Both the position numbers and the translations under genes were made by a program. From the IMG/VR virus record IMGVR_UViG_2899924645_000001, positions 1 through 64,000 of that record: a stretch of 64,000 nt of DNA. One strand, 5' to 3'. Each line of letters begins with the position of its first letter. Positions within the stretch are counted from its first letter, which is position 1. Shown here one piece after another: positions 31,744 through 54,951 of the stretch. The notes under the pieces are model-generated. The model was given only the letters and a program-made list of their open reading frames with translations. It was not told the origin of the DNA and did not search any database. This DNA is from a virus. Its lineage: Duplodnaviria > Caudoviricetes.

Positions 31744-32807
31744 GCAAACGCAAGGGCACGCACGCCCACAGATCGACGCACGCCGCGCCGTTGGCTAATG
31801 CTGACGCCGCGGGTGCGAACCTGATGGCACAGCCGGGCGGTGGCGCTGTCGCGGCCTTCAGTTTCGGCGACCCCGAGCCGGTGAGCCGCATTCAGCTGCT
31901 CGACTACGTCGAGAGCATGTTCAACGGCCGCTGGTACGAGCCGCCGCTTCCATGGGAAGGGCTGGCGAGCGCGTTCCGGGCTTCGCCGCACCATGGCTCT
32001 GCGATCTTCCTGAAGCGCAATCTGCTTAAGACGATGTTCATCCCGCACCCACGGCTGTCGAGCGCGACATTCGGCGCGATGGCGCTGGATTTCTTGGTCT
32101 TCGGCAATGCCTACGTCGAGCAGCCGCGCGCCGCAACGGGCCGGCCGCTGGCGCTGCAGCACGCGCTGGCCAAATTCACGCGGCGCGGGGAAGAGGAGGG
32201 CCGCTACTTCTTCGTGCGTGGCTGGCATCAGGAGCACGAGTTCCCCGCTGGCTCGGTTTTCCATCTGCGTGAAGACGATGTCAATCAGGAGGTCTATGGC
32301 CTGCCCGAGTACATCAGCGCGCTGCAGTCGGCCTGGCTCAACGAGTCGGCCACGATGTTCCGGCGCAAGTACTACGCGAACGGCTCGCATGCGGGCTTCA
32401 TCCTGTACCTGTCGGATGCGCAGGTCAGCACCACCGACGCGGACGCGTTGCGCGAGGCGCTGAAGGGGGCGAAGGGGCCGGGCAATTTCCGGAATCTGTT
32501 CCTGCATGCGCCTGGTGGCAAGTCCGATGGCCTGAAGCTGATCCCCGTTAGCGAGGTGGCTGCGAAGGACGACTTCGCGGCGATCAAGAACGTGAGCAAG
32601 GACGACGTGCTCGCCGCCCACCGCGTGCCGCCGGGCCTGCTCGGCATCGTGCCGACCAACGCCGGCGGGTTCGGCAATGCGCCGGACGCGCTGGGGGTGT
32701 TCATCGACAACGAGATCCGGCCGCTGATGCAGCGCTTTCGCGAGCTCAACGAGTGGGCAGGGGAGGAACTGGTGCGGTTCCTCGTGCCGGAGCGGAAGGC
32801 CGCGTAA
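31740..32807 (+). CDS. Q: Portal protein Q (PBSX family)
   Basis: FSFGDPEPV..WYEPP..QEVYGLPEY..GFGN. Confidence 0.95.
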   Translation: MSKRKGTHAHRSTHAAPLANADAAGANLMAQPGGGAVAAFSFGDPEPVSRIQLLDYVESMFNGRWYEPPLPWEGLASAFRASPHHGSAIFLKRNLLKTMFIPHPRLSSATFGAMALDFLVFGNAYVEQPRAATGRPLALQHALAKFTRRGEEEGRYFFVRGWHQEHEFPAGSVFHLREDDVNQEVYGLPEYISALQSAWLNESATMFRRKYYANGSHAGFILYLSDAQVSTTDADALREALKGAKGPGNFRNLFLHAPGGKSDGLKLIPVSEVAAKDDFAAIKNVSKDDVLAAHRVPPGLLGIVPTNAGGFGNAPDALGVFIDNEIRPLMQRFRELNEWAGEELVRFLVPERKAA

Positions 32808-32915: not shown

Positions 32916-34358
32916 CTACTTGGCGAGCGCGAAGAACTGCGGCCGGTTGGCTCCGGCCGCGTGCACGGTTTGCAGAGCGAGCGCGCCGGTGCTCCGGTCG
33001 ATCGTAAAGACCGAGATCGTGTTGTCGCCCTGGTTCGCCGTATAGGCGAACCGGCCTGTGCGATCCACGGTGACGGAGTTGGGCGTGTTGGCGCCGACGG
33101 AGAACGGCTGGCCCGGTACGGCCGTCAGCGCGCCGGTTCGTGGGTTGATGGCGTAGGCCGAGACGTTGTGGGAATTCCTGTTCGCAACGTACACGAAGCG
33201 ACCGGTCGGATCGATGGCCATGCCAAAGGGCGTGTTACCGGAGGGCACCGAGCCGATCGAAGTCAACGCGCCTGTGGTTTGGTCAATGGAATAAGCGCGC
33301 AGGGTGCCGGGGTTGTTGCCAGTGCTCACGTAGGCGAAACGGCCGCTGGGTTCAGCCGCGACGTCGACGATGCCGCTGACTGGCAGCGCAACCGACGCGG
33401 GTGGCGAGATCGGAACGCCGGTGCCCTGATCCAAGCGGAACACCTCGATGGACGCGCCGTTGGGCACGAACGCGAATCGCCCCTCGGGATCGAAACCTAA
33501 CTTGCGACTGTTGCCGCCGGCCACGGCCACGGCCGTGCTGCCGTCGAGGTCGCCGGTGGTGGCGTCGATATTGAGCCGATGGATCTGCCCATCGCCGATC
33601 ACGTAGGCAAAACGTCCCTTGGGTTCGACGCCGACAAAAACCGGGCTCGTGCCGACGCCGGTGGTCAGATTGAGGTTCTGCGACAGCGTGCCGGCGGGGT
33701 CGATGGTGGATTGAGTGACGCCTTCGGTCCCGACGTAGACGCTGGTGTAGAGCTTTTTCCCCGAGGGATGCGCGGTCACGTGCTGGGGCGTGCCTGCCAA
33801 GGGGTACGCAGTGGCTGCTGACAAGCTGCCATCCGGAGAAACGGTGTATGCAGTCAGACTGTTCGATCCCTCATTGGCCGCAAAGCCGAAACGGTCGGCT
33901 CCGGCCTCCGAGCAATTGACCGTCACCGAGCTCACCGCCGCCCCCGCAACCGTTCCGAAGGCCTGTTTCGCAACACAGACCTGCAGCGCCGTGGGCTGCG
34001 TCTTCACGGTCACGCCGTACTCGGCACCGTCGTCCAGCGAAGAAGCGAAGCTGAAGCTCCCGTCGGCGGCTACGGCCAGGTCGTCACCTGCGTTGTTCTG
34101 CAGCACCAGCCCGCTGCCTGCCAGGCCGGTGACGGTGCCGCCGACAGTGAACTTCAGCGCGCCCGCTGGCGGCGCAGGGGGAGGCGGCGGCGGCGGTGGC
34201 GGGGGTGGCGGCGGCGCGTCGCCTACGCCGCTGTTGGCCGGAGGAAAGGGACCAAAGGAGAAGCCTCCGCCTCCACCGCCGCCGCACGATGTAAGCATCA
34301 AGGGCACGGCGATGGCCAGGGCGAGGCTCAGGCGGGTGCGACAGGGCAGTGGCGGCAT
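32916..34358 (-). CDS. Lipoprotein with Pro/Gly linker, Ig-like domain and lactonase-type beta-propeller (moron)
   Basis: Lipobox LMLTS-C, poly-G/poly-P, repeated DPxGRFAYV blades. Confidence 0.8.
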   Translation of the reverse strand: MPPLPCRTRLSLALAIAVPLMLTSCGGGGGGGFSFGPFPPANSGVGDAPPPPPPPPPPPPPAPPAGALKFTVGGTVTGLAGSGLVLQNNAGDDLAVAADGSFSFASSLDDGAEYGVTVKTQPTALQVCVAKQAFGTVAGAAVSSVTVNCSEAGADRFGFAANEGSNSLTAYTVSPDGSLSAATAYPLAGTPQHVTAHPSGKKLYTSVYVGTEGVTQSTIDPAGTLSQNLNLTTGVGTSPVFVGVEPKGRFAYVIGDGQIHRLNIDATTGDLDGSTAVAVAGGNSRKLGFDPEGRFAFVPNGASIEVFRLDQGTGVPISPPASVALPVSGIVDVAAEPSGRFAYVSTGNNPGTLRAYSIDQTTGALTSIGSVPSGNTPFGMAIDPTGRFVYVANRNSHNVSAYAINPRTGALTAVPGQPFSVGANTPNSVTVDRTGRFAYTANQGDNTISVFTIDRSTGALALQTVHAAGANRPQFFALAK

Positions 34359-34675
34359 TTCTTTTACTTTAGGAAACAAATGTGGCGGCGATGTTATCGG
34401 GACGCGCTGCCATTTGCACGCCCCGCGGCTGGCCGCCACTTCGTGCCAGATGCTGTCGAATTCAGCCACTTCGTCCAGCGTCGCACCGCCGTGGTGGTTT
34501 GGATGACGCAGATTCGCGCAGATGGCCTCCAAACACGACTTGTTCGCTCAAAGGTCCCCTTGCCCTTGCCTTGGGCCGCTCGGCCTCTCCATGGGGCTGC
34601 CACGGGCCTCGTAGCGATCCCGCCGCCTCCACGACCGTCCCCCCGACGCGGGCCGCCCGTCCCCGCCGACGCGCG

Positions 34676-35120: not shown

Positions 35121-35987
35121 GTGCATCCCTTTAGCCTAGGACAGGAGTACGAGCGAGCTGCCTTGCTCTCCTTCGTCGGCAGCCGCCAAGCCCAGCCAGG
35201 GGTGATCTGGGGAAGTAGGGAGCCAGGCTGCGTCATCTGTACTTCAGGAGGCCGGCACGGCAAGCAGGCCGGGTACGTGGACGGGCAGCAGCCTGATGGT
35301 TCGTGGGTCTACGTGGGCCAGGGCACTAGCGGGGACCAGCGACTTGAGAACTCGGCGAACGCGAAGCTCGCATCGTTCGATCGATCTGTGTTGCTATTCA
35401 CCACGCGCGAGCCCAACTCCAGGGAGATTGCGCTGCGCGGGTACGGCAAGCACTACGTCTTCCGAGGTGCATTCAATGTCGCTGGCTTCGAGTTCTTCTC
35501 CCCCGACTCGGGATCGAGGAAGGGCGACCGCCTGCTGCGATTCTTCTTAATGCCGGCAGACGACAGCTACATTGAAAGCCAAGCGTTCGAGCCGAGCGTC
35601 ACCGCTGAGCACGAGTTGTCACTCCGTGCCATGCAATTGAAGCTTCGCGAATTAGCAAGTCCAGCCAAGCAGAAGAGGCTGACGACGATCGAGTACCGAG
35701 CGCGCAGTGCGGCAGTGCATCGATACGCGTTGGCCAGGGCGAAGGGTAGTTGTGAGTGCTGCGGCTTGGGCGCACCCTTTGAAAGCGATCAGGGCATTCC
35801 ATACCTGGAGGTGCATCATCTCTTGAGGTTGGCAGACGATGGTCCTGATGCGCCAAGCAACGTAGCTGCCGTTTGCCCGAACTGCCATCGTGCCCTGCAT
35901 CATTCCAAGGGACGAGCTGCTCTCGCGGCGTCGTTGCGTTTGCGGGTTGCGAAGTTCGAAGATGAAATCGTCCATGCGCCTGGGTAA
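35121..35987 (+). CDS. HNH endonuclease with N-terminal SRA/PUA-like domain (type IV McrA-like)
   Basis: YVGQGTSGDQ..N SRA-like motif; CECC..LEVHH..DAPSNVAAVCPNCH; GAGGAGA RBS before GTG at 35121. Confidence 0.8.
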   Translation: MHPFSLGQEYERAALLSFVGSRQAQPGVIWGSREPGCVICTSGGRHGKQAGYVDGQQPDGSWVYVGQGTSGDQRLENSANAKLASFDRSVLLFTTREPNSREIALRGYGKHYVFRGAFNVAGFEFFSPDSGSRKGDRLLRFFLMPADDSYIESQAFEPSVTAEHELSLRAMQLKLRELASPAKQKRLTTIEYRARSAAVHRYALARAKGSCECCGLGAPFESDQGIPYLEVHHLLRLADDGPDAPSNVAAVCPNCHRALHHSKGRAALAASLRLRVAKFEDEIVHAPG

Positions 35988-36099
35988 GCGCGGCCCTTCA
36001 ACGAGCCTGGGCTTGGGCGTTCGATCCCTCTTGAGCAGGCCAGCGCCAACGACGTACCGTCACCGACAATCCTGTCCGTCCAACTAGAACACGCACTCG

Positions 36100-38469
36100 A
36101 TGACATCGAAAGAACTCCACTTCGACGTAAGCACGGGCTTGAAGCGCGTCATCGGACGCGACTTAATCACGAACGACGAAGTCGCCATCTTCGAGCTCGT
36201 CAAGAACTCTTTCGATGCTAACGCGCGGAACGTGCAACTGTACTTCTCGTCGCAAGGCCTGATCATCGTCGACGATGGCAAGGGCATGACGTATGACGAC
36301 CTGACCAAGAAATGGCTGTTCGTCGCGTATTCGTCCAAGAGCGGCGGGGCTGGCGCATCGGCCGCGCCCGGCCAGTTCCGAGAGCTGATCGCTGAGCGCA
36401 GGCACTACGCTGGCAGCAAGGGCATTGGGCGGTTCTCGTCTGACAGGCTCGGCAGCACGCTGCTGATGCAGACGCGTTCATCGGCGGAGAACGGGCCGGT
36501 CCACGAGGTCTTTGTCGACTGGGGCTTGTTCGAGGCCAACCTGCGAGAACAGTTCGGGAATATTCCAGTGCGCTACACGGAGCGCGAGGCATTCACTTTG
36601 CCCCCAGAGGTAGACGTTCCCGATCACGGCACGGCGATCTTCATTAAGGTCAACCCCGAGGATCGATTGCCCTGGGACCGGCATCGAATATTGCAGCTTA
36701 AGGCGTCGCTCGCGAAGCTCATCAATCCGTTCGGTAGCGGTGTCGATGGATTCCAGATCAACATCATTGCGCCGGAGGAGGAGGAGGCCGACAAGGCGGA
36801 GGCCCAGTCTCCTCGGAGGACGGAGGAGCTCAGCCCGAACGACGTCGTCAATGGCCACGTCGGTAACTTCATCTTCTCGACCCTACGGGACAAGACGACC
36901 TTCATCGAGGTGTGGTTGTCCGACGACGGCGGTTTCATCAACAGCGCGCTGACCGATCGGGGCGAACTGGTGTATCGGATTCGGGAGCCGAATCCTTACG
37001 AGTGGCTCCAGCAATCCGGATTCAGGTGCGAGCTCTACTACCTAAACCAGTCGGCGAAGACGACATTCGCCCGTCGGATGGGCGTGTCGTCCGTCAAGTT
37101 CGGGTCGGCCTTCCTCTTCCGCAACGGGTTCCGGGTCTATCCGATAGGCGAGGAGGGCGATGATTCGTTCGGGATCGACCGACGGAAGCAGCAGGGCTAC
37201 GCACGCTTCCTTGGAACCCGGGACATCATCGGGCGCCTGGACGTCTCCGGGCCAGAAGATCTGTTCAAGGAGGCCTCCAGCCGGAACCAGGGCTTGATCG
37301 ACTCGGCTGCCGTTGACGAGTTGAAGGCATGCTTCTGGGAATATTGCCTCAAGCGGCTCGAGCGCTACGTCGTGCCAGTCACGTGGGCTGATCGAGCGGA
37401 AAAGGACACGGAGGATCTTTCTCGCTTGCTGACAGACTCGGGCAAGGCTCGCGTTGCTAGCGCCTTCGCGAAACTTATCGACGACGCCGATGTCGAGGTG
37501 CTGGAGTACAGCAAGAAGCTAATCGGCATCTTGAACGAGCGATCGAGCCAGTTCGAGGAGTCGATGGTCAGCCTCCGCGCCATCGCGCTCAAGAGCAGCG
37601 ATGTGGCGATGCTTGAAAGCCTCGACCGGGCCGAGACGCGTTTCGCGGAACTCCGGCGGGCGGAATCCGAAGCTGTCAAGATCGCAGGCGAGGAGCGACG
37701 TGCGCGCGAGGCTGCTGAACGCATCGCGGAGCAAGCAAGGCAAGACGTCAATCGTCTCGAGGTCGATCTCGGCGAGGAGCAGAAGCGCACGCGCTTCCTC
37801 ATGTCGATCAAGTCCCTCGACCACGACACGATCCTGAACCTGCACCACCAGATCACCATCTACGCCGCCGACGCCAAGCAGCAGATCGAGAATTGCATCG
37901 CCGCGGCGAAAGTCAACGGACTCTCTCCCGAAGAGACCGTGGCCCGGCTGGAGAATATCGCCTTCCTGAACCACAAGGTGCTATCGATCTCGAGGTTGGC
38001 GACCAAAGCGAACTTCAGGCTGGAGTCCGACTATATCGAGGGAGATCTGGCGGCCTACGTCGACGACTACCTTACCCAAGGAGCGGCACCGTTCCTCGGC
38101 TCGGGCATTGAGCTCAAGGTGGGCCGGCACGATGCGGTTCTAGTCAAAAGGTTTCGGCCGATCGAGGTCTCGATCGTGATCGACAACCTTATCAGCAACG
38201 CCGAGCGAGCTCGCGCGACCGAGGTCGTCTTTGATCTCTCGAATCCGGACAAGAAGACGTTGCTTATGACGGTCACGGACAACGGTCGGGGCATCTCCCA
38301 TTCGATCGCGGACGTGGAGCAGATCTTCGAGCTCGGGTTCTCCAGGACTTCCGGCTCGGGGATCGGGATGTACCACGTCCGGCAGGTACTTGGGGAGATG
38401 GGCGGGAGCATCTCGGTGGATACCGCCGTCCGACGCGGTGCCAAGTTCGACGTTAAGGTGACCGCATGA
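36100..38469 (+). CDS. GHKL (MORC/MutL-like) ATPase fused to a C-terminal histidine kinase
   Basis: N-terminal ELVKNSFDA, DDGKGM, GSKGIGRF; coiled coil; LHHQI H-box, DNLISNA, DNGRGI, FELGF..GSGIGM. Confidence 0.9.
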   Translation: MTSKELHFDVSTGLKRVIGRDLITNDEVAIFELVKNSFDANARNVQLYFSSQGLIIVDDGKGMTYDDLTKKWLFVAYSSKSGGAGASAAPGQFRELIAERRHYAGSKGIGRFSSDRLGSTLLMQTRSSAENGPVHEVFVDWGLFEANLREQFGNIPVRYTEREAFTLPPEVDVPDHGTAIFIKVNPEDRLPWDRHRILQLKASLAKLINPFGSGVDGFQINIIAPEEEEADKAEAQSPRRTEELSPNDVVNGHVGNFIFSTLRDKTTFIEVWLSDDGGFINSALTDRGELVYRIREPNPYEWLQQSGFRCELYYLNQSAKTTFARRMGVSSVKFGSAFLFRNGFRVYPIGEEGDDSFGIDRRKQQGYARFLGTRDIIGRLDVSGPEDLFKEASSRNQGLIDSAAVDELKACFWEYCLKRLERYVVPVTWADRAEKDTEDLSRLLTDSGKARVASAFAKLIDDADVEVLEYSKKLIGILNERSSQFEESMVSLRAIALKSSDVAMLESLDRAETRFAELRRAESEAVKIAGEERRAREAAERIAEQARQDVNRLEVDLGEEQKRTRFLMSIKSLDHDTILNLHHQITIYAADAKQQIENCIAAAKVNGLSPEETVARLENIAFLNHKVLSISRLATKANFRLESDYIEGDLAAYVDDYLTQGAAPFLGSGIELKVGRHDAVLVKRFRPIEVSIVIDNLISNAERARATEVVFDLSNPDKKTLLMTVTDNGRGISHSIADVEQIFELGFSRTSGSGIGMYHVRQVLGEMGGSISVDTAVRRGAKFDVKVTA

Positions 38470-39392
38470 GGCTCGACTTCACGATTCTGTGGATCGATGA
38501 CCAGCCGCAACATATCCGGAGCTTCGAAGAAGGACTGAGAAATGCTTTGGACGCCCTGGGTTTCAAGCTAACCGTCATCCCCGTCGCTGGCTTGGACGCC
38601 GTCGATGCGACGGTGTCAGAGCATGTCCACGACGACGCAATTGATCTGGTGTTGGTGGACTACGACTTGAACGGGAAGGGCACCGGGGGCGAGGAGGCCC
38701 TCCTTCAGGTGCGAAAGAAGCTGCCCTTCAAAGACGTGATCTTTTACTCGGGCACCGACGTGAAGAAGCTCCGGGAGATCGCGTACAACGCCGGCGTCGA
38801 CGGCATCTATTTCTCGTCGAGGCCGGGGCTTGTCGGCAACGCGACGAAGGCGATCCAGAAGCTCCTAAGCAAGGTCATGGACCTCGACCACATGCGAGGC
38901 GTGGTTATGTCAGCCTCAAGCGACATCGACTTCGTTGTGGAGCGCAGCCTGCTCAAAATGCATGATGCGCTGGATGAAGCGGAAAGGGCGGCCCTGCATG
39001 CCGAGATCGTCGCCGAGCTGCGAGAGAAGCTCAAGAAATGGAGCGACGAGCTGGAAAAGGTAGGCTCGAAGGGGGACTTCGCCAGCCTGATGAAGAAGAA
39101 GCACATCTTCACCGCTTCGGACAGACTAGGCAGCCTCTTGAAGCGGCTCGCATCCTGGGAAGCGGAGCACGACGGAACGCGTTCTAAGGTTGACAACTAC
39201 ATCAATGGCGTCGTTCAACGGCGTAACAAGCTCGCGCACGCGATGCTACGGCGCCAAGACGGCAAGCTGCGGATGGTCGGCATGGAGCAAAACTGGACGG
39301 CCGAGGAAATGACCGCCCTGCGGCGAGAGCTGATCGACCACCGCGACAACTTTATGCTCATCGCGGTATTGCTGGACGTCAGCCTGGACTAG
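38466..39392 (+). CDS. Response-regulator receiver domain fused to a HEPN-like helical domain
   Basis: ILWIDD..DLVLVDYDL..IFYSG receiver; C-terminal RNKLAH (RxxxxH) at 39222-39239; ATGA-coupled to the kinase. Confidence 0.75.
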   Translation: MRLDFTILWIDDQPQHIRSFEEGLRNALDALGFKLTVIPVAGLDAVDATVSEHVHDDAIDLVLVDYDLNGKGTGGEEALLQVRKKLPFKDVIFYSGTDVKKLREIAYNAGVDGIYFSSRPGLVGNATKAIQKLLSKVMDLDHMRGVVMSASSDIDFVVERSLLKMHDALDEAERAALHAEIVAELREKLKKWSDELEKVGSKGDFASLMKKKHIFTASDRLGSLLKRLASWEAEHDGTRSKVDNYINGVVQRRNKLAHAMLRRQDGKLRMVGMEQNWTAEEMTALRRELIDHRDNFMLIAVLLDVSLD

Positions 39393-40674
39393 GCACCGAA
39401 GTCGCCAGCCACACGGCTACAGACTTCCCGATCGCTTCCGCCATCAGCGGGGGAACCGCGTTCGCGACCTGCGTGAAACGAGGAACCTCCTGTTTTCGAA
39501 GCTGGCCACCCGTCGTGTACTTGCCCCGGAATTGGAACCAGTCTGGAAAGCTCTGCAGCCGCGCATTTTCTCGTACCGTCAGGGTGCGAGGCTCGCGGTA
39601 GTGCAGCAGGTCGTCCGGCATGCTCGTGATAGTGGGCGACGGACGATCGGGATCGAGCACCCGTAGCGCCATTTTCTTGAGGCCGAATGATTCCCGGAGT
39701 TCGCGACTGATCGACACGTTCAGTCGGCCATCCTTGTGCGATATGTCGATGATCTGTTCGAAGCGTTTGACGATCTCGGGCCTGTGGCGCGCCAGCCTGG
39801 AGCTATCAGGCGTCGTCTCGCTTCCTGCTCGCATGAGCTTCTGGAAATTCGTCCTCGCGGGCCCGTAGGCGATCGCGCTGAACCCCTTGCTGTCGGGGCA
39901 GTCGATGACGCTGCCGCGCGCGAGCTCGAGATCCGATATGGCAGCGGAAGCGCTTGTGGTCGTTAGGAGCCCCTTGGATTGCAGGAATTGGTTACGGCTG
40001 CCAGTCAAGGCCTCGAAGGGATCTTGAGATTCCTTGAGCTCCTTCCGCAGGCCCAGCAGAAAGAAACGCACCCTGGCCTGGGGTACGCCGTAGTCCGACA
40101 CCTTGATCATCTTCCAGCGCACGCGGTAGTCCTTCGACAGCTCGCGCACCAACTTCTCGGCGTAGTTGATGCGGCCGTCGTTGCTGGATTCGTCCACGAA
40201 GTCCACGGTGATCCCGTTGACATTCTCGATCAGGACCGCTCGTGGGCGAACCTTCCGCACGAGCTTCAGGTAGCTGTCCATCAGGGCATTGCGCGGATCT
40301 GCGGCATTGCGACGTCCAGCGCTGGAGAATCCCTGACACGGCGGGCCGCCGGCCATCAAGTCGACTTTACCGGACAGCGACGCCAGCTTCCCCGAATGCT
40401 TGGCAAGCAGTTCCATGGCGCAGATCGGCTGTTGCGGTAGCCATGCCGGCCATTGGTAGCAATGCTCGCCCTCGCGCGCCAACAGGTTCGTCTTCAGGGT
40501 TTCAAAGGCAAATTTATCCTTCTCAACCGCGAAGAGGCCATTCCAGCCAGCTTGCATCAGGCCAAGGCTAAGGCCGCCGCAGCCGGCGAAGACGTCGATG
40601 AACGTCAGGCGCTTCGTCTGGGCAGTGCTTGCCTCCTCGCCGCCGTCCTGGGGGGGACTTTTGACTTGTAGCAT
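39379..40674 (-). CDS. C5 DNA cytosine methyltransferase
   Basis: FAGCGG, GGPPCQGFS, ENV, QARVR, RENARLQSFPD, QVANAVPP; convergent with and overlapping the receiver gene by 14 nt. Confidence 0.95.
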   Translation of the reverse strand: MLQVKSPPQDGGEEASTAQTKRLTFIDVFAGCGGLSLGLMQAGWNGLFAVEKDKFAFETLKTNLLAREGEHCYQWPAWLPQQPICAMELLAKHSGKLASLSGKVDLMAGGPPCQGFSSAGRRNAADPRNALMDSYLKLVRKVRPRAVLIENVNGITVDFVDESSNDGRINYAEKLVRELSKDYRVRWKMIKVSDYGVPQARVRFFLLGLRKELKESQDPFEALTGSRNQFLQSKGLLTTTSASAAISDLELARGSVIDCPDSKGFSAIAYGPARTNFQKLMRAGSETTPDSSRLARHRPEIVKRFEQIIDISHKDGRLNVSISRELRESFGLKKMALRVLDPDRPSPTITSMPDDLLHYREPRTLTVRENARLQSFPDWFQFRGKYTTGGQLRKQEVPRFTQVANAVPPLMAEAIGKSVAVWLATSVPSPG

Positions 40675-41458: not shown

Positions 41459-41496
41459 CATGGCATCAGTCATGGTATTTTCCTGCGGATACCATG
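41459..41496. repeat. Candidate arm sites of prophage 2 attL
   Basis: CATGGCAT 41459-41466, CATGGTAT 41471-41478, inverted ATACCATG 41489-41496 overlapping the int start. Confidence 0.5.
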
Positions 41497-42657
41497 ACAC
41501 TCACCGTTAAAGCTGTTGACGCGGCCAAGCCGCGCGAGAAGGCGTACAAGTTGGCGGATGCCCACGGCCTCTACCTCTACGTTTCGCCCAAGGGCGCAAA
41601 GAGCTGGCGGGCCAACTACACGGAAGCCGGAAAGCAGAAGACGCGGACGTACGGCCTCTACCCTGGGGTGAGCCTGGCCGAGGCGCGAAAGGCCCATTCA
41701 GCGGGGCGAGAAGAGGCTCCAGCGCCAAAGCTGGCGCCGACATTCGAGGCGGTAGTGCGCGACTGGCTGAAGGCGAAGCTGCCGACGCTTTCCAACGGCA
41801 AGCATCAGATTCAGGTGGCGAACACCTTGGAGCGCTACGCGCTGCCGTTTCTCGGCAAGCTGCCTATCAACGCGATTCCGAGGTCAGAGCTGGTGAAGGT
41901 GGTGCGTGCTGCCCAAGCGGGCGGAAAGATCGAAACCGGACATCGCGTCGCGAGCCGGATTTCGGCGGTTTTCGATTTCGCCCAAGACACCGGGCTGATA
42001 GAGCAGCATGGCGCAGCCGGCCTCACGCGCGTGCTCATCGCGCGCAAGACAAAGAAGCCGATGGCAAGCATCCCTCCGGAAGAGGCCGGAGTGCTGATGC
42101 GCGCCATAGATGGATATGACGACTCAGTAACCCGGCTCGGGCTGCTGCTGCTCGCGCACACCTTCGTCCGGGTTGGTGAGTTGAGGGGGATGCTATGGGG
42201 GGAACTGAAGGAAGGCGGCGCGGTGTGGGTCGTTCCCGAGACCCGAATGAAGATGCGCATGCCGCACGTCGTGCCTCTCTCGCGACAGGCTCAGTCAATC
42301 CTTGCAAAGCTGCGCGAGATGAGCGGCGACGGTGCGCTTGTGCTCGATTCGCCCATTCATCCGGGGCACCCGCTGTCGGAGAACACCTTTCTGTTTGCCC
42401 TGTATCGGCTTGGCTACCGTGGGCGGATGACGGCCCACGGGTTCCGCGCCTTGGCTTCGACAGTGCTCAACGAGCGGTCGGGGTTTCCGCATGACGTGAT
42501 CGAGCGGCAGCTCGCGCACAAGGAGACAGACGCTGTTCGCGCGGCGTACAACCGCGCTGAATACCTTACGCAGCGCCGTGAGCTGATGCAGTGGTGGTCG
42601 GATTGGCTGGAGGCGGCTCAACGAAGCGACGAAGGTCCGAGACCCGCCAGCGCGTGA
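41494..42657 (+). CDS. int: Tyrosine integrase, P4/IntS-type
   Basis: KAYKLADAHGLYLYV..KSWR; TFVRVGELRG; HGFR; QLAH; AYNRAEY. Confidence 0.95.
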   Translation: MTLTVKAVDAAKPREKAYKLADAHGLYLYVSPKGAKSWRANYTEAGKQKTRTYGLYPGVSLAEARKAHSAGREEAPAPKLAPTFEAVVRDWLKAKLPTLSNGKHQIQVANTLERYALPFLGKLPINAIPRSELVKVVRAAQAGGKIETGHRVASRISAVFDFAQDTGLIEQHGAAGLTRVLIARKTKKPMASIPPEEAGVLMRAIDGYDDSVTRLGLLLLAHTFVRVGELRGMLWGELKEGGAVWVVPETRMKMRMPHVVPLSRQAQSILAKLREMSGDGALVLDSPIHPGHPLSENTFLFALYRLGYRGRMTAHGFRALASTVLNERSGFPHDVIERQLAHKETDAVRAAYNRAEYLTQRRELMQWWSDWLEAAQRSDEGPRPASA

Positions 42658-42802: not shown

Positions 42803-43248
42803 TGGCTGATTCCTTCCTCTGCCGCGGCCTGGCGGCGAATGCGCGCGAGCGATTCGATGAATGCATCGAACATCTGCCTTGGCGAGCTGTTGCGGGTTAT
42901 TTCTTCGCAGACCTGGAGGCCGGCGGCCATCGCTTGCAGGCCGGGTCCGTCGAAGCCATAGCGGCCGTGTCGGCCGTGAATTGCGTCGCAGCGGCGAAGC
43001 GCGTCTGCTGCGGCGCGGAGGGGCGCGAGGCAAAGCTCGTCTATCTGCTCGGCGCGCACCATGACCGTATTCAGGTGCGTGCTGAGCCTGTCGAAAAGCT
43101 CGTCGTCGGTGCTGCCCGTCTTCAGGTCTGCGAAGGCGCTGTAGACCTTGGTCATGATGTCGTCACCGGCCGGGATGTTGTGCACCTGACGTGCGGCGAC
43201 AGCGACAGCGACCATCGCGGGGCGGACGCGGCGGCTGTTGCGCTTCAT
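42799..43248 (-). CDS. Hypothetical phage protein
   Basis: Coupled ORF in the early operon. Confidence 0.55.
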   Translation of the reverse strand: MKRNSRRVRPAMVAVAVAARQVHNIPAGDDIMTKVYSAFADLKTGSTDDELFDRLSTHLNTVMVRAEQIDELCLAPLRAAADALRRCDAIHGRHGRYGFDGPGLQAMAAGLQVCEEITRNSSPRQMFDAFIESLARIRRQAAAEEGISQ

Positions 43249-44162
43249 GCGGACTCCCTGATTTGGACGATCAGGTCGCGTGCGACGGGCGGGCATACGG
43301 CGTTGCCCAGCATGTGCATCGCGGCCTTGTGCTGCGGCGGCAGCTTGTAGTCGGTCGGGAAGCCCATAGCGGCGCGCGCTTCATTGGCTCGCAGCATCCG
43401 CATACGGTTGCCGCGCACTAGCGCCCACCGGTCAACAGTGGTGATGGTCCCAATGGGGCGATGGATGCTGCGGCCGGTGAGGCCCGAGCCGCTACCGTAG
43501 TAAGGGATCAGGAAGCGTCCGCATGCAAGGTCCCTGCGGCCCTGATGGATGCGCCGGAGCGTTGCCGGACTACGCTTTGCGGTCCGGATGGGCGACCATG
43601 TGCCCGCCTCGAAATCGACGATGGCGCTCGCGGGAACATGGTCGCGCTGCGGCAGCTTGAGCGTGATGGGATTCCTGCTGCGCGTGCCGACGACGAAGAG
43701 CCGGGCGCGGTGTTGAGGTACGCCGTGGTCTGCTGCATCGATCACCATGGGCGCCAGTGCGTACCCGAGCCCTTCCATGGCGAGAGCCCAGGCGGGATAG
43801 AGAGCCCAGTCGATGAAGGCCGGCACGTTCTCGACGATGAACACCGGCGGGCGGTGGCATTCGGCGGCCGACACGACAGCCCATGCCGTGCTTCGCAGCG
43901 CGTCGTGGTGAGGCTTCTCCTTGCCTCGGGCCGGGCTGTGCCCTTGGCAGGCGGGCGAGGCCAGCAGCAGATCGTGCGCCGGCACCTCGCGCCAGTCGGC
44001 CTGCTGCAAGTCCTGGCATGCGTGCACGGTGCCCGGGTGGTTGGCCGAGTGAATTTCTACGGCGGCCTGCCAGTGGTTCGCCGCCCACACTACGCTGCAG
44101 CCCGCTTGCGTTGCTCCAGTCGAGAAGCCGCCAGCGCCGGCGAAAAGGTCGATGGCCTTCAT
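43245..44162 (-). CDS. C5 DNA cytosine methyltransferase (phage orphan)
   Basis: DLFAGAGG, ASPACQGHS, VENV, QHRARLF, LGNAVCP. Confidence 0.93.
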   Translation of the reverse strand: MKAIDLFAGAGGFSTGATQAGCSVVWAANHWQAAVEIHSANHPGTVHACQDLQQADWREVPAHDLLLASPACQGHSPARGKEKPHHDALRSTAWAVVSAAECHRPPVFIVENVPAFIDWALYPAWALAMEGLGYALAPMVIDAADHGVPQHRARLFVVGTRSRNPITLKLPQRDHVPASAIVDFEAGTWSPIRTAKRSPATLRRIHQGRRDLACGRFLIPYYGSGSGLTGRSIHRPIGTITTVDRWALVRGNRMRMLRANEARAAMGFPTDYKLPPQHKAAMHMLGNAVCPPVARDLIVQIRESA

Positions 44163-44818
44163 CGCTTGGCCCCCAGTCCCGCGAGAGTTCGAGCCACCTG
44201 CAGCTCGGCGAAGCGCGTGAGAAAGCGCTCGCGCCAGTCCTTCCACGTCGCGGCCTCGCGCTCGGGCGTGTCGAGGCGAACCCAGTCGGCGGGCGCGACC
44301 GGCTGCAGCGTGTTGTCGTTGAGCGCGGGCCACGGCATGTGGCGCGAGGGGTTGTAGGGCGTCAGGTCGCGGCGAGCCGTGGCGAGCGCCTGCAGGTCGA
44401 TGGAGCGCAGAAACTCGCGATGCCCGGCGAACACCGACAGAAGCTTGAAGTGCTCGCGCACGCCCTTGGCATGCTCGGCTTCGAAGGCGTGCCATGCGCC
44501 GACGCCGAAGGCCATGCTGTAGCTGTTGACGGCTTGCTTAGCGGGACTGATGAGGTCGTTGGTGTATGCCTCGTGCGCGTCGTGCAGCAACGCTGCCATC
44601 TGCACGAACACCGATGCGCCGGCGCGCTGGGCGATGTCGCAGCACAGGAGGCTGTGCTCGGCCACGCTGTAGGGGCGCGACGTGGCGCCGTTGAACTGGG
44701 CGACGATGGCGAGGTGGTGCGCCACGTCGTTGATGTCCACGGGGCGGCCGCATGCGCCGTAGGCGGTGGGGCCGGCGAGGTGGTACTCGGCGCCGCTTGC
44801 GGTCAGCATCCACGTCAT
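44159..44818 (-). CDS. HD-domain phosphohydrolase (YfbR-like)
   Basis: RF/QFNGATSRPYSVAEHS..LLHDAHEAY. Confidence 0.85.
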   Translation of the reverse strand: MTWMLTASGAEYHLAGPTAYGACGRPVDINDVAHHLAIVAQFNGATSRPYSVAEHSLLCCDIAQRAGASVFVQMAALLHDAHEAYTNDLISPAKQAVNSYSMAFGVGAWHAFEAEHAKGVREHFKLLSVFAGHREFLRSIDLQALATARRDLTPYNPSRHMPWPALNDNTLQPVAPADWVRLDTPEREAATWKDWRERFLTRFAELQVARTLAGLGAKR

Positions 44819-52315: not shown

Positions 52316-52879
52316 GTGAAGGTAGTTGAAGCATTGGGAGGCCCGATCACGCAAGCGGAGTTCGCCGCGCTGATCGGCGTCAGCGAGGCGAAGGTTAGTC
52401 AGCTCGCCAGCGAGGGCGTCATCGTCCGTGGCGTACCGGGGCACACATGGTTGCTCGCCTACTGCGAGCGGCTGCGTGAAGTCGCGGCCGGCCGTGCGTC
52501 CTCGGATGGCGGCGGCCTTGACCTCGTGCAGGAGCGCGCGGCGCTTGCGCGCAGTCAGCGCGAGGCGCAGGACATCAAGAACGCAGTGGCCCGTCGTGAA
52601 TTCGCGCCCATCGGCCTTCTCGCCGACGTGCTCGGCAAAGCGTCGAGCGCGGTAGTGGATCGCTTCGAGCAGTTGGAAGGGGCGATGCGCAAGACATGTC
52701 CGGACCTCCCCGATGAAGCCTTGGCGACGGTGCAAAAGATCATTGCCAGCGCACGCAACGAATGGATTCGCTCAACGGCGAAGCTCGTCAGCGACGACCT
52801 CGATGCCTTGGAGCAGTCGCCCGACGATGGCGAAGACGACGACGCATCGACGTTCGGCGCCGAGGGTGCGGAGGTCTGA
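52316..52879 (+). CDS. Terminase small subunit (Nu1-like)
   Basis: wHTH TQAEFAALIGVSEAKVSQL; coiled coil LVQERAAL. Confidence 0.8.
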   Translation: MKVVEALGGPITQAEFAALIGVSEAKVSQLASEGVIVRGVPGHTWLLAYCERLREVAAGRASSDGGGLDLVQERAALARSQREAQDIKNAVARREFAPIGLLADVLGKASSAVVDRFEQLEGAMRKTCPDLPDEALATVQKIIASARNEWIRSTAKLVSDDLDALEQSPDDGEDDDASTFGAEGAEV

Positions 52880-54951
52880 TGGGGGCATACGTTTCGCGTG
52901 AAACATTGCTCGCTGTTCGCCGCTCGGTCGAACTCGGCCTTAGCAGCCTTCGCGCCGAGCTGTTCCAGACCTTGAGCGAATGGGCGGTGGATCACTTCAA
53001 GCTCGCGGGGGAAAGCTCGCACCAGAAAGGCGGATGGATCGCTTGGTCCTTTCAGGTCGGCATGCTCGACTTCATGAGCGATGACCGAATCGAAGAGCTC
53101 GACGTAATGAAGTCGAAGCGCGTCGGCTACACCAAGATGATTACCGCCTTCGTCGCCTACAACATCGCGCACCGCCGCCGAAAGCAGGCCCTATGGCAAC
53201 CGACAGACGACGACCGCGATAGCTACGTCAAGAGCGAAATCGATCCGTTGCTGGATGCTCGCGACGGTGTGCCAGCCGTGCAGGCCGCTCGGCGCAAGGG
53301 CGGTGGCAACGACGACACAATCAAGATGAAGAAGTTTCGCGACAGCGTGCTTCATCTGCTGGGCGGCAAGGCGAAGCGCGCCTATCGCCGAATCACCGTG
53401 GCCGTGGCCATCCTCGATGAGTGGTCTGCGTTCGATCAGACCATTGAGAAGTCGGGCGATCCTGGCGGCCTGGCGAAAGGGCGGACCGAAGGCGCCGCAT
53501 ACCCGAAGTTTGTCGGCGGCTCGACGCCCGGCTTCAAGGGGCTTTGTCACGTCGAGCGTGCGGCCGGCAACGCCGAAGGCTTCGTGCGCTTCCACATCGA
53601 CTGCCCGCATTGCGGCTTGGAGCACCCGCTGATGTGGGGTGGCCGCGAGAAGCTCTTCGGCTTCAAGTGGGAGCGGGGCCAGCCTGCGACGGTGCGGCAT
53701 GTCTGCCCGCACTGCCACGAATCCATCAGGCAGAGCGACTACCTGCAAGGCGGCTTGCCGACGCAGGGCGTATGGGTCTGTGAGAAGACCGGCAAGCGCT
53801 TCGGTCCGGATCGAGTCTGGCGCGACGCGGCAGGCATGCCCACTCGGCCGCCGAAGTCCCTCGGCGTGCATGTGTGGGCGGCCTACAGCCCGCAGCGCAC
53901 ATGGGAAAGCATCGTCAAGGAATTTGAGGAAGCGCTCGATGCCTTGCAGCGCGGCGACGCCGGACCGATGCAGCTCTTCGTCAACGAGACGTTGGGCGAA
54001 ACATGGGAGGTCGTAGGCGAACGCACCGACGACCACGAGCTGCAGGCACGCGCCGAACCCTTTCCCCTGCGCACCGTGCCTGCTGGCGGCTTGGTGCTAA
54101 CGGCCGGCGTAGACGTGCAGCGAGACCGTTGGGAAATCGATGTATGGGCATGGGCGCGCGGCCTCGAATCTTGGATCGTCGATACCCATGTCATAGAAGG
54201 CAATCCCGCTTCGGAAGCCGACTGGGCTCCGGTTACCGAGTATTTGAGCCGGCGCTACCTGCAAGCCTGGCACGGCGGCTCGATGGGACTGAGCGCCATC
54301 TCGATTGACTCCAGCGACCAGACCCAAGCCGTCTACAACTGGGTGCGCAAGGTTCAACACCAGCTGCCGAAGCTGCGCGCCATCAAGGGCCGAGGCGAGG
54401 AAAACATCCCGGTGCTCGGTCCGAGCAGTGCGCAAGAGGTGAAGTGGAACGGCAAGCGTTGGCCGAACGGCGTCAAGCTCTGGAGCGTTGGAGTCGACAC
54501 CGCGAAAGACCTGCTGCTGGGGCAGCTATCGATTGTGGAGCCTGGCCCGGGCTATGTGCACTTCAGCGCTGAGCTGCCGCGCGAGTGGTACGAACAGTTG
54601 ACGGCAGAGCAGCGAATCCTCGTGAAGGTGGGCGGCCGAGAAACCTATCGGTGGGTGAAGCGCCGTCCACGAAACGAACGGCTCGATTGCCGCAACTACG
54701 CATTGCATGCCGCCTTCGGCCTGGGCTTGCACAACTACACCGACAAGCGTTGGAGTGAGCTGGAGGCTTCGGTGCAGCCGCCGCGTGACCTGTTCTCGGA
54801 GTCCCTACCTGCCCCCCTCCAAGCATTGCCACCGGAGAGCACTTCGGCAACTGCCGCAGAGCACGCGACCCCCGCACTCGAGTCCGCCTCCCGCCCTCAC
54901 ACTCCCGCGCCGGCAACGCGCGCTCGGACCTCGTTCGGACGAGATTGGTAA
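52879..54951 (+). CDS. Terminase large subunit, lambda gpA family
   Basis: KSKRVGYTK, ILDEW, GGSTP, CPHC, LTAGVDVQ, PRNERLDCRNYA. Confidence 0.95.
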   Translation: MGAYVSRETLLAVRRSVELGLSSLRAELFQTLSEWAVDHFKLAGESSHQKGGWIAWSFQVGMLDFMSDDRIEELDVMKSKRVGYTKMITAFVAYNIAHRRRKQALWQPTDDDRDSYVKSEIDPLLDARDGVPAVQAARRKGGGNDDTIKMKKFRDSVLHLLGGKAKRAYRRITVAVAILDEWSAFDQTIEKSGDPGGLAKGRTEGAAYPKFVGGSTPGFKGLCHVERAAGNAEGFVRFHIDCPHCGLEHPLMWGGREKLFGFKWERGQPATVRHVCPHCHESIRQSDYLQGGLPTQGVWVCEKTGKRFGPDRVWRDAAGMPTRPPKSLGVHVWAAYSPQRTWESIVKEFEEALDALQRGDAGPMQLFVNETLGETWEVVGERTDDHELQARAEPFPLRTVPAGGLVLTAGVDVQRDRWEIDVWAWARGLESWIVDTHVIEGNPASEADWAPVTEYLSRRYLQAWHGGSMGLSAISIDSSDQTQAVYNWVRKVQHQLPKLRAIKGRGEENIPVLGPSSAQEVKWNGKRWPNGVKLWSVGVDTAKDLLLGQLSIVEPGPGYVHFSAELPREWYEQLTAEQRILVKVGGRETYRWVKRRPRNERLDCRNYALHAAFGLGLHNYTDKRWSELEASVQPPRDLFSESLPAPLQALPPESTSATAAEHATPALESASRPHTPAPATRARTSFGRDW

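Follow-up and report, generated by a model that had tools for sequence, protein, structure and literature searches.

The locus described here is a new branch of a class of defence loci that was predicted computationally and has been tested in only one distant relative. Its conserved unit consists of three genes rather than four, encoding a C5 cytosine DNA methyltransferase, a GHKL ATPase joined to a histidine kinase, and a receiver protein. We lean, by a modest degree, towards reading it as a mobile, methylation-linked two-component defence (or conflict) cassette in which a phosphorelay would gate a HEPN-type RNase. The locus lies in the first 64,000 nucleotides of the IMG/VR virus record IMGVR_UViG_2899924645_000001; this whole stretch is referred to as the window, and its relevant features are as follows.

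31845..32807, plus strand: P2-like prophage portal gene, as context (phrog_68, E 2e-142)
35121..35987, plus strand: SRA-HNH nuclease, McrA/ScoMcrA-like (288 aa; GTG start behind a GAGGAG ribosome-binding site)
36100..38469, plus strand: soluble paraMORC-type GHKL ATPase fused to a histidine kinase (789 aa)
38466..38855, plus strand: REC domain of a 308-aa response regulator (acceptor Asp65 at nt 38658-38660)
38856..39392, plus strand: C-terminal output domain of the receiver gene, all-helical, probably HEPN (R253-N254-K-L-A-H258 at nt 39222-39239)
39379..40674, minus strand: C5 cytosine DNA methyltransferase (431 aa; PF00145)
41494..42657, plus strand: tyrosine integrase, as context (Arm-DNA-bind_3, Phage_int_M and Phage_integrase domains)

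The four genes of the locus and their couplings are borne out by the open reading frames of the window at the positions given to them in a first-pass annotation made from the DNA letters. There is a 4-nt overlap between the kinase and receiver genes, the receiver gene is a single reading frame (38466-39392, plus strand, 308 aa) that spans the REC and output domains, and the receiver and methylase genes converge with a 14-nt overlap of their 3' ends. That annotation regarded all four genes as one candidate defence system, an interpretation that our analysis supports in part.

The kinase comprises a GHKL region (aa 1-135), a middle domain (aa ~135-470), a coiled coil, an H-box and a CA domain (aa 690-787); in Pfam, HATPase_c_3 matches aa 27-131 (E 4e-22) and HATPase_c matches aa 690-787 (E 9e-20). 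The HHQ H-box is intact, as are the two ATP sites. Bergerat motifs I-III, which characterize paraMORC and MORC proteins (PMC2292703), are preserved in the GHKL head, where E32, K35, N36, D39, D58xGxG and G105..R111 are invariant among 44 kinase homologues. Also invariant in this set are R362, R374 and S394-R395 of the middle domain, and H582, H583, Q584, D727xG, F743 and G746 of the H-box and CA domain. The C-terminal part is organized as in histidine kinases, where the H-box His precedes a CA domain that contains the G1, F and G2 boxes; here the H-box reads LNLHHQ, and either His582 or His583 (nt 37843-37848) is the predicted phosphate acceptor. Homologues of the kinase form more than 6000 clusters. 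The family-specific middle domain occurs in no proteins other than those with HATPase_c_3, and sequence searches gave no match to an S5-fold transducer after the GHKL domain. As the first-pass annotation had stated, transmembrane segments are absent: no hydrophobic segment is long enough for a transmembrane helix, and the kinase is soluble.

The proposal that the next gene encodes a REC-HEPN fusion holds for the REC domain, and for HEPN as a probable assignment. REC gives a weak Pfam match (E 2.8e-4), and its AlphaFold model (pLDDT 88) adopts the (beta-alpha)5 fold and retrieves PorX and CheY-like receivers in Foldseek with E values of 1e-7 to 1e-5. The canonical positions are occupied by an acidic pocket (D11/D12), the acceptor Asp65 at the end of beta3, S95 at the end of beta4 and, at the beta5 position, an invariant Arg119 in place of the usual Lys. 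Residues D65, S95, R144, G145, R253, N254, H258 and R286 are invariant even at 21-32% identity. The C-terminal output domain carries R253-N254-x3-H258, a HEPN Rx4-6H motif with a polar residue after the Arg, which is invariant in three alignments (A1, A2 and A3) down to 21% identity. Members of the family repeatedly match the Pfam families HEPN_RiboL-PSP, Swt1, Apea, LA2681 and MAE_28990, each per-member match lying below the gathering score, and the searches returned no match to any non-HEPN output family or to an HTH. With hhalign, the whole domain aligns to HEPN_RiboL-PSP over 130 columns with the motifs in register (probability 76.6%, E 2.1e-5), and the PADLOC Cas13-ApeA profile matches the receiver protein at E 0.002. 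The output domain is thus probably a HEPN-type RNase domain, as judged from these sequence comparisons.

The third gene is a C5 methyltransferase, as first annotated. DNA_methylase (PF00145) matches at E 2e-51 with 322 of 324 profile positions covered, PADLOC MTase_II matches at E 8e-82, and catalytic motifs I, IV, VI and VIII are all intact, as FxGxG (29), PPCQ (112-114, with C113), ENV (150) and QxRxR (199).

The extent of the conserved unit was assessed in 49 species-level genome loci from at least 10 phyla. The kinase gene adjoins the receiver gene in every one of them, with the 4-nt overlap in 48; the methylase is found in 48 loci and is convergent in 43, and in 36 of these 43 its 3' end overlaps the receiver gene. 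Conservation of gene neighbourhood, suggested in the first-pass annotation as a check, thereby holds for the kinase, receiver and methylase genes as tightly as an operon allows, and no gene beyond these three is conserved across the 49 loci. Among 93 first-neighbour ORFs no family occurs more than four times, so that the cassette forms a unit of its own, found in unrelated settings. The SRA-HNH gene, which had been counted as a fourth member, occurs in two of the 49 loci, in addition to the window and one metagenomic relative, and is an accessory outside the conserved core. [quoted passage not shown]

The distribution and divergence of the core bear on two other explanations. One is housekeeping signalling in epigenetics or repair, in which the MutL-like head would cooperate with Dcm and Vsr in very-short-patch repair, or would report methylation state. 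Vsr genes do lie beside the core in 11 of the 49 loci, and cooperation of MutL and Vsr is established (PMC2292703), but we regard this explanation as very improbable: the cassette has a patchy distribution, dispersed horizontally over at least 10 phyla and covering ~0.03% of species representatives, the locus is prophage-adjacent, the output domain is toxin-like and the receiver diverges much faster (median identity 34%) than the kinase (54%) or the methylase (58%). The other is a selfish addiction module, in which kinase, receiver and RNase would form the 'R' arm, so that loss of the methylase or its mark lets the RNase kill the segregant; such killing would stabilize a mobile element, with defence secondary or absent. 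The autonomy of the cassette and its insertion in unrelated contexts are in keeping with this, as are the convergence of methylase and receiver genes with overlapping 3' ends, seen in many restriction-modification (R-M) pairs, and the literature on post-segregational killing by R-M systems cited in PMC8011034. Addiction is, however, compatible with defence, and three loci (L001, L003 and L029) are without the cognate convergent methylase but have kinase and receiver intact, so that we consider addiction as the principal function unlikely.

The conserved unit is not a wholly new kind of system, contrary to the description of the locus as a candidate new one, since the theme of paraMORC-kinase, receiver and C5 methylase has been reported (PMC8011034) and the related Ambrosia system defends against phage. 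The first-pass annotation was right that similar neighbourhoods had been noted computationally (PMC8011034); it knew of none that had been characterized experimentally, which Ambrosia has been. The computational precedent is that of Bellieny-Rabelo, Pretorius and Moleleki (2021), who described a sister family, HEF_HK/Response_reg_2 (PF19191, PF19192), beside R-M genes in a purely computational study that named no effector (PMC8011034). In both families the kinase is soluble, begins with a HATPase_c_3 (paraMORC) domain and ends with HATPase_c; a receiver-like protein is encoded next to it, and a C5 methylase gene is closely linked, in many cases with Vsr or HNH genes in the vicinity. Over 131 aa the two GHKL heads share 33% identity (E 3e-14). 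The present locus nevertheless fails the Pfam models of that family. The kinase has no match to PF19191, the HEF_HK DHp model, at E values up to 10, whereas the same library detects it in two control members, L056 (E 2e-27) and L057 (E 6e-7). PF19192 matches neither the receiver in a protein scan (E <=10) nor any part of the record (E <=1), and a family relative scores only 18.9 bits against a cut-off of 27. The architecture also differs: the kinase is 789 aa long with an HHQ H-box, against ~1000 aa in HEF_HK; the receiver has 308 aa and an RNxxxH domain, whereas Response_reg_2 proteins have 555-617 aa and a tail that carries no annotation; and the methylase is convergent and downstream, against co-directional and upstream in the HEF_HK system.

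The identity of the accessory nuclease was partly confirmed. The HNH domain is clear (PF01844, E 4e-9; PADLOC mREase_IV, E 4e-20): the C-terminal half matches E. coli McrA (PDB 6ghc, E 2e-20), and the zinc-cysteine pattern CxxC ... HH ... N ... CxxC-H of the beta-beta-alpha-Me fold is present. The SRA domain is supported through homologues, the protein of the window having no Pfam SRA match of its own. Homologues at 46-49% identity match SAD_SRA at aa 6-148 (E 1.4e-5, below the gathering score), a homologue at 77% identity matches PF26348 (SRA_ScoMcrA) weakly, and the match of the window's protein to PDB 5zmm includes a local one in the SRA region of ScoMcrA.

There is about an even chance that this nuclease is simply an independent type IV restriction gene, located in the same defence island as the cassette but functionally unconnected with it. 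The gene is preceded by an AT-rich region and a ribosome-binding site of its own, and 112 nt separate it from the kinase gene. The nearest homologue, at 85% identity, and further ones occur without a kinase-receiver pair, often just after vsr, and the scarcity of the gene among the 49 loci fits as well. Its recurrence argues the other way. Although restricted to the window's own subclade, where the only related loci that have it are L001, L003 and L066, the gene stands beside the kinase-receiver pair in the window and in these three loci in three different arrangements, and in a further locus (L067) the nuclease lies less than 2 kb from such a pair. Moreover, a relative with a 90% identical kinase (L060) has an unrelated, non-homologous HNH_2 nuclease in the same upstream slot.

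The same recurrence would fit a reading of the cassette as a transcriptional switch like that of Ambrosia (AbrR/A/B/C/D), in which a methylase, a HATPase-kinase, a REC protein and an HNH nuclease are anti-phage in P. aeruginosa, mutation of the GHKL Asn or the acceptor Asp abolishes defence, and the two-component pair controls transcription and not an enzyme (bioRxiv 10.1101/2025.09.30.679545). [quoted passage not shown] Ambrosia, which was read in this way, has the same parts list, a clustered DNA methylase, HATPase_c_3 plus HATPase_c kinase, REC protein and HNH nuclease, and it shows that such an architecture can be antiviral. However, neither an HNH gene nor any other nuclease gene flanks the core in at least 45 of 54 loci, and the HNH protein therefore cannot be the general effector. 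The output domain, moreover, gives no HTH match, has the invariant RNxxxH and aligns to HEPN, and the Ambrosia proteins are only remotely similar: with fragments of at most 76 aa from the supplement of that paper, AbrB matches the kinase at the conserved middle motif at E 0.013, and AbrC REC aligns in register with the receiver but at E 7. A switch of this type appears improbable. The locus differs from Ambrosia in every accessory part, and the kinase architecture alone agrees with the five-gene composition of that system. Ambrosia has an N6-adenine methylase, a 209-aa REC protein reportedly with a wHTH, a PtuB/retron-type HNH without SRA and an XRE regulator; the present locus has a C5 methylase, a HEPN-like REC tail that is 100 aa longer and an SRA-McrA-type HNH that is dispensable family-wide. 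No XRE gene was found at the locus, where a small upstream ORF gives no HTH match.

Phosphorelay control of an enzymatic effector, as in the reading we prefer, has a precedent in Detocs (DtcA/B/C), where His-Asp phosphotransfer gates a receiver-fused enzyme in abortive infection (Rousset et al. 2023, 10.1101/2023.01.24.525353). Detocs itself is built from a TPR sensor kinase, which is not paraMORC, a buffer receiver (DtcB) and a PNP ATP-nucleosidase effector, with no methylase; at the present locus PADLOC reports no Detocs match, and neither a second receiver gene nor a PNP domain is present. The GHKL head in turn relates the kinase to the paraMORC ATPases of R-M loci, which include BbrUII/HgiDII-type enzymes (Iyer, Abhiman and Aravind 2008, PMC2292703; PMC8011034), and to the paraMORC3 protein VcSduA of the validated Shedu defence (PMC12137116). 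Common to these and the present system are intact Bergerat motifs, a link to cytosine methylase, Vsr or HNH genes and an effector downstream of the ATPase. In those other proteins a nuclease or TIR effector is fused to the ATPase or encoded beside it, whereas here a kinase module and a separate receiver stand between the ATPase and the putative effector. The NF050001 model matches only the first 120 aa of the kinase, with 61 bits against a cut-off of 550.

PrrC, RloC and other HEPN Abi effectors offer a further parallel, a HEPN Rx4-6H RNase that serves as a suicide effector and is genetically linked to an R-M locus (Anantharaman et al. 2013, PMC3710099), with the RNase of the present locus being putative. 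A REC-HEPN fusion is absent from that survey, in which the word 'receiver' appears once, in another context. PrrC is an ABC-ATPase-HEPN fusion restrained by a type I restriction enzyme and freed by a phage peptide; the present locus has no restriction enzyme, and phosphorylation would exert the control. The suggestion of a PrrC-like guard of an R-M system finds no support, as the locus encodes no companion restriction enzyme for it to protect. PADLOC 2.0 does not contain the family, in agreement with the expectation that no full match would be found, and the family merits addition to defence-finder catalogues once tested.

For the defence cassette we infer the following order of events. The methylase would mark resident DNA, and the N-terminal GHKL head would act as a MutL/MORC-like, ATP-driven clamp that reports the state of DNA or an infection cue, the simplest cue being DNA without the cassette's methyl mark. 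This trigger is a guess, because the kinase has no domain known to read methylation or DNA sequence. Closing of the head would lead to autophosphorylation on His582/583 and transfer of the phosphoryl group to Asp65 of the receiver, which may then dimerize and form a composite HEPN site (R253, N254 and H258); the resulting RNA cleavage would stop growth and abort infection. Where present, the SRA-HNH protein could add a second layer against 5mC-modified DNA, or it may act on the cassette's own mark, as proposed for the nuclease of Ambrosia (10.1101/2025.09.30.679545). A narrower version, an R-M analogue without a DNA-cutting arm in which the MORC-like clamp reads the presence or absence of the cassette's 5-methylcytosine mark on DNA and turns this epigenetic self/non-self distinction, through the His-Asp phosphorelay, into activation of the HEPN RNase, is offered tentatively. 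If true, this would be the first two-component system to couple the sensing of methylation state to abortive infection, and a direct bacterial model of MORC-type ATPases reading epigenetic marks.

The function of bacterial and eukaryotic MORC proteins is a long-standing question, and the core, being free of any DNA nuclease, allows DNA sensing by a paraMORC head to be examined cleanly. Should the mechanism hold, a compact three-gene system spread over at least 10 bacterial phyla would join epigenetic self-marking, MORC/MutL-type ATPase clamps and phosphorelay-gated suicide effectors, three subjects that have until now been pursued separately. The Detocs principle of a receiver domain gating an enzyme would then extend to RNases, and Ambrosia, the only tested relative, would gain a sister system with an enzymatic instead of a transcriptional output.

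The placement of the cassette between the cos and att sites of a P2-like prophage is upheld as regards the prophage. It lies directly to the left, with large and small terminase, portal, major head protein, sheath and tape measure genes, and the cassette adjoins its packaging end; a consensus scan gave no match to a cos site, the proposed att core is present in a single copy in the 80-kb record, and no tRNA gene was found in that record. No phage structural gene lies between the portal gene and the cargo region to its right, and the portal protein is 63% identical to the portals of Ralstonia P2-like phages, which sit ~2.7 kb from the genome end. Only two further IMG/VR records contain the cassette, which is therefore not typical phage cargo. 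The cassette DNA is lower in GC (59-61% versus 62-68%). The integrase at 41494 seems to open a further phage-like element, the second in tandem, which has a terminase of its own at 52762-54951.

ORF calls bear out the four adjacent genes of the first-pass annotation, together with their coordinates and couplings:

35121-35987, plus strand: SRA-HNH nuclease gene (Pfam HNH, E 4e-9)
36100-38469, plus strand: kinase gene (Pfam HATPase_c_3 at aa 27-131 and HATPase_c at aa 690-787)
38466-39392, plus strand: receiver gene (weak match to Pfam Response_reg, E 2.8e-4)
39379-40674, minus strand: methylase gene (Pfam DNA_methylase, E 2e-51)

The kinase and receiver genes overlap by 4 nt, and the receiver and methylase genes are convergent with 3' ends that share 14 nt. 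Hydrophobic stretches in all four proteins are too short for a membrane helix, as the claim of a system free of transmembrane segments had it, and a promoter scan of the region gave no match to the sigma-70 consensus. PADLOC returned zero system-level matches for the four genes, the expected outcome; its single-gene calls were a type IV methyl-directed enzyme for the first gene (E 4e-20) and a type II methylase for the fourth, and the head of the kinase was found similar to the ATPase head of some type II enzymes. The BbrUII/HgiDII family of NCBIfam matches the first 120 aa of the kinase only, with 61 bits against a cut-off of 550.

The receiver alignment, run against a single genome of each species, yielded 49 loci from Alpha-, Beta-, Gamma- and Deltaproteobacteria, Acidobacteriota, Cyanobacteria, Bacteroidota, Chlorobiota, Ignavibacteriales, Verrucomicrobiota, Fibrobacterota, Armatimonadota, Eremiobacterota and Binatota. 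In all 49 loci the kinase is directly upstream of the receiver, with the 4-nt overlap in 48, and a C5 methylase is present in 48/49, being convergent right after the receiver in 43 (36 of these with a 3' overlap, median 45 nt) and co-directional and upstream in 3. Clustering of the ORFs of the 49 loci revealed no fourth conserved gene; apparent extra conserved families were rejected as shadow ORFs within the core genes. A Vsr gene occurs in 11/49 loci. The first neighbours vary (LysR regulators, transposases, ABC transporters), and a Pfam census of 93 of them from 54 loci found no family more than four times. The fixed core and the lack of recurrent neighbours mark the cassette as autonomous and mobile. 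Thus, of the neighbourhood originally proposed as a four-gene system, the kinase, receiver and methylase are co-conserved and the SRA-HNH gene falls outside the core. Over the 49 loci, median identity to the window proteins is 54% (kinase), 58% (methylase) and 34% (receiver), which makes the output protein the fastest-evolving part. The receiver diverges fast, yet its catalytic-looking residues are invariant, a pattern expected of an effector under counter-defence pressure.

A locus from an uncultured Massilia sp. (L029) carries the kinase-receiver pair without Dcm, followed by a convergent Vsr gene and the gene of a large protein, the C-terminus of which matches DptH of the phosphorothioate-dependent restriction system (PDB identifier 7es4, E 7e-49). 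In another homologue locus (L069), a related large protein precedes Vsr and SRA-HNH:

L029:10032-16043: site of this arrangement; its large protein has 1842 aa and is 68% identical to the L069 protein
L069:944-6946: site of the related arrangement, with the large protein preceding Vsr and SRA-HNH

Homologues of the kinase form more than 6000 clusters, and the two ATPase domains recur in every one. Aligning 44 full-length relatives reveals invariant residues in the GHKL head (E32, K35, N36, D39, D58xGxG, G105..R111), the middle domain (F340, F344, P348, R362, G372, R374, S394-R395), the H-box (H582-H583-Q584) and the CA domain (D727xG, F743, G746), and selection therefore acts on the two ATP sites and on the phosphoacceptor region. 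Only other HATPase_c_3 proteins share the middle domain (aa ~135-470).

The AlphaFold model of the receiver, built from 28 homologues (pLDDT 88), adopts the (beta-alpha)5 receiver fold and is grouped by Foldseek with PorX and CheY-like domains. Canonical receiver positions are filled by D12, D65 (end of beta3) and S95 (end of beta4), and the beta5 Lys of receivers is replaced by an invariant Arg119 (window 38820-38822). A few members match the cREC_REC model (PF20274), the receiver type of other conflict systems. Helices and a single hairpin make up the C-terminal 175 residues, and the invariant positions there (R144, G145, R253-N254-x3-H258, R286) are kept in 38 members with just 21-32% identity to the window protein; in the Rx4H motif, an Asn directly follows the Arg. 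Sub-threshold matches of the members point to HEPN_RiboL-PSP (5), HEPN_Apea (3), HEPN_Swt1 (2), HEPN_LA2681 (2) and HEPN_MAE_28990 (1), with none recurring among non-HEPN output families for this domain, and the Cas13-ApeA model of PADLOC matches the receiver with E 0.002. Profile-profile comparison with 16 bona fide HEPN_RiboL-PSP domains aligned the whole C-terminal domain over 130 columns (76.6% probability, E 2.1e-5), placing the RNxLAH of the receiver opposite the RNDIAH of HEPN_RiboL-PSP. Of the REC-HEPN protein claimed at first pass, the REC part is thus upheld by the fold and by D65 and S95, and the motif and profile match indicate that the C-terminal domain is probably homologous to HEPN, a kinship through which it may possess RNase activity.

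Structure searches with the C-terminal domain modelled alone (pLDDT 87.6) gave no decisive match. The profile of the domain gave chance matches only against PDB sequences (E at least 0.9), and against 1.84 billion representatives it matched 704 clusters at 50% identity; the 150 matches listed all belong to the same REC-fused family or are fragments of it, nearly all of 300-320 aa, and hence provide no bridge to an annotated family. [quoted passage not shown]

The cassette has a defined anatomy, a conserved composition and intact sites. With a confidence a little above even, we hypothesize that it serves defence, is linked to methylation and has an RNase controlled by a phosphorelay, and this is the best-supported reading. 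The methylase would mark self DNA and the MutL/MORC-like head of the kinase would sense a cue from DNA or infection; ATP-driven closure of the head would activate the kinase, His582/583 would hand the phosphate to Asp65, dimerisation of the receiver would build the HEPN site, and RNA cleavage would arrest the cell. We infer the trigger, the sign of control and the activity, and phosphorylation could equally keep the RNase off. The same kinase, receiver and methylase might instead constitute a selfish addiction module, a role that is compatible with defence and that we regard as improbable, and it would be surprising indeed if they served repair or epigenetic signalling.

ParaMORC ATPases were defined in 2008 as parts of R-M loci, where they accompany cytosine methylases, Vsr and HNH (Iyer et al., PMC2292703). 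Bellieny-Rabelo et al. (2021, PMC8011034) later described a soluble HATPase_c_3 + HEF_HK + HATPase_c kinase beside a Response_reg_2 protein, with a HEF_HK/Response_reg_2 linkage of 91.6% in 644 regions and an enrichment of C5 methylases, Vsr and HNH_2, and proposed by computation a cytoplasmic two-component system tied to R-M, naming no effector. The earlier remark that similar neighbourhoods had been noted computationally is therefore accurate. Two HEF_HK members (L056, L057) have the gene order methylase, kinase (~1000 aa), receiver, Vsr, and their GHKL heads are 33% identical to that of the window kinase. However, their receivers lack detectable similarity to the window receiver, and the window kinase and receiver fail both Pfam models, so the window locus is a sister family of HEF_HK and not a member. 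The Response_reg_2 proteins of the two loci continue beyond the receiver for ~400 residues, a stretch without any Pfam match, and in L057 genes for Vsr and a NOV_C-domain protein lie downstream:

L056:6260-7927 and L057:7659-9512: Response_reg_2 proteins of 555-617 aa

Ambrosia, which was validated in P. aeruginosa in a 2025 preprint, comprises an XRE protein, an N6A methylase, a 747-aa HATPase_c_3/HATPase_c kinase, a 209-aa REC protein and a 213-aa HNH protein; its defence needs every gene, the GHKL Asn and the acceptor Asp, and infection induces its expression (10.1101/2025.09.30.679545). Two fragments of AbrB and AbrC, of at most 76 aa, are only marginally similar to the window proteins. 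Detocs is a precedent for an enzymatic defence effector under the control of a receiver domain (10.1101/2023.01.24.525353), and in VcSduA a paraMORC3 protein is antiviral (PMC12137116). The papers searched on HEPN, receivers, kinases and defence contain no account of a paraMORC kinase with a REC-HEPN partner, and the pair is absent from the 2013 HEPN survey (PMC3710099). Thus, the locus is less novel as a class than was first proposed, this being known from computation and one tested relative, and this branch, in which the output is HEPN-like and the C5 methylase is convergent and overlapping, seems not to have been described.

The C-terminal half of the SRA-HNH protein is closest to E. coli McrA (PDB identifier 6ghc, E 2e-20), and a short segment in its N-terminal part aligns with the SRA region of ScoMcrA. 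Its homologues (46-49% identity) match SAD_SRA along almost the entire length of that model (E 1.4e-5), and SRA_ScoMcrA is present in many of them, which makes the original SRA-HNH assignment a fair reading. Among the 49 loci, the gene is found in Pusillimonas and Allopusillimonas only, where it follows the receiver, the usual convergent methylase is absent, and farther along come an AbiE pair and a different Dcm; in Pusillimonas (L001) this pair marks the region as a defence island. Beyond these, a 77% homologue lies upstream of kinase-receiver-methylase in an arrangement identical to that of the window (L066), and a 69% homologue is convergent with a Vsr-methylase-kinase-receiver-Mrr operon (L067). 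In a locus with a 90% identical kinase (L060), the place of the SRA-HNH gene ahead of the kinase is taken by an unrelated, non-homologous HNH_2 nuclease.

L001:11008-12670: AbiEi/AbiEii toxin-antitoxin pair, between the kinase-receiver-HNH genes and the different Dcm methylase gene
L060:337-1113, plus strand: HNH_2 nuclease without similarity to the window SRA-HNH

We read the SRA-HNH gene as an optional add-on, with functional accessory and mere island neighbour about evenly probable. Other homologues occur without any kinase, typically right after vsr and near dcm. As in L065, L068 and L069, the family is often directly downstream of vsr, near dcm or genes of very large ATPases. This habitual linkage of a putative 5mC-reading nuclease to genes of 5mC writing and repair is odd for a plain type IV enzyme. 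That a putative 5mC reader should neighbour a 5mC writer is no paradox: E. coli K-12 has both Dcm and McrA. The Ambrosia HNH is proposed by its authors to act on the system's own mark (10.1101/2025.09.30.679545). The window locus might be an Ambrosia-like transcriptional switch with the HNH protein as effector, a reading that we consider doubtful mainly because ~90% of the loci are without a nuclease. The evidence thus supports a three-gene core, with SRA-HNH as an optional nuclease, in place of a four-gene unit.

The P2-like prophage recognized at first pass is confirmed by structural and packaging genes directly to the left of the four genes (tape measure, sheath, major head protein, small and large terminase, portal). 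The portal gene ends at 32807 and its product shares 63% identity with the portals of Ralstonia P2-like phages, in which the portal lies ~2.7 kb from the genome end; the four genes are plausibly cargo at the packaging end of the prophage. Their GC content is 59-61% versus 62-68% in the phage DNA on both sides. Other features flank the cassette:

32916-34532, minus strand: lactonase-type 7-bladed beta-propeller ORF, 538 aa (PF10282, E 8e-35)
41494-42657, right of the cassette: integrase, opening a second phage-like element
43245-44495: phage-type DNA methyltransferase of the second element (phrog_116)
52762-54951: large terminase of the second element, a different one (phrog_15)

The whole record is an 80-kb IMG/VR provirus, and a second element with its own integrase, methylase and terminase directly after the cassette argues that it comprises two tandem elements. 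The proposed att core with its surrounding 221 nt occurs once in the record, which contains no tRNA gene and in which no long flanking direct repeats were found; a scan with a P2-type cos consensus gave nothing meaningful. Searches with the receiver found the cassette in just two other IMG/VR records, and the kinase gave two weak partial matches only among sequenced phages, none of which has the cassette; a typical phage cargo was therefore rejected. The beta-propeller ORF, which sits between the portal and the defence genes and runs antiparallel to the portal, looks like further non-phage cargo.
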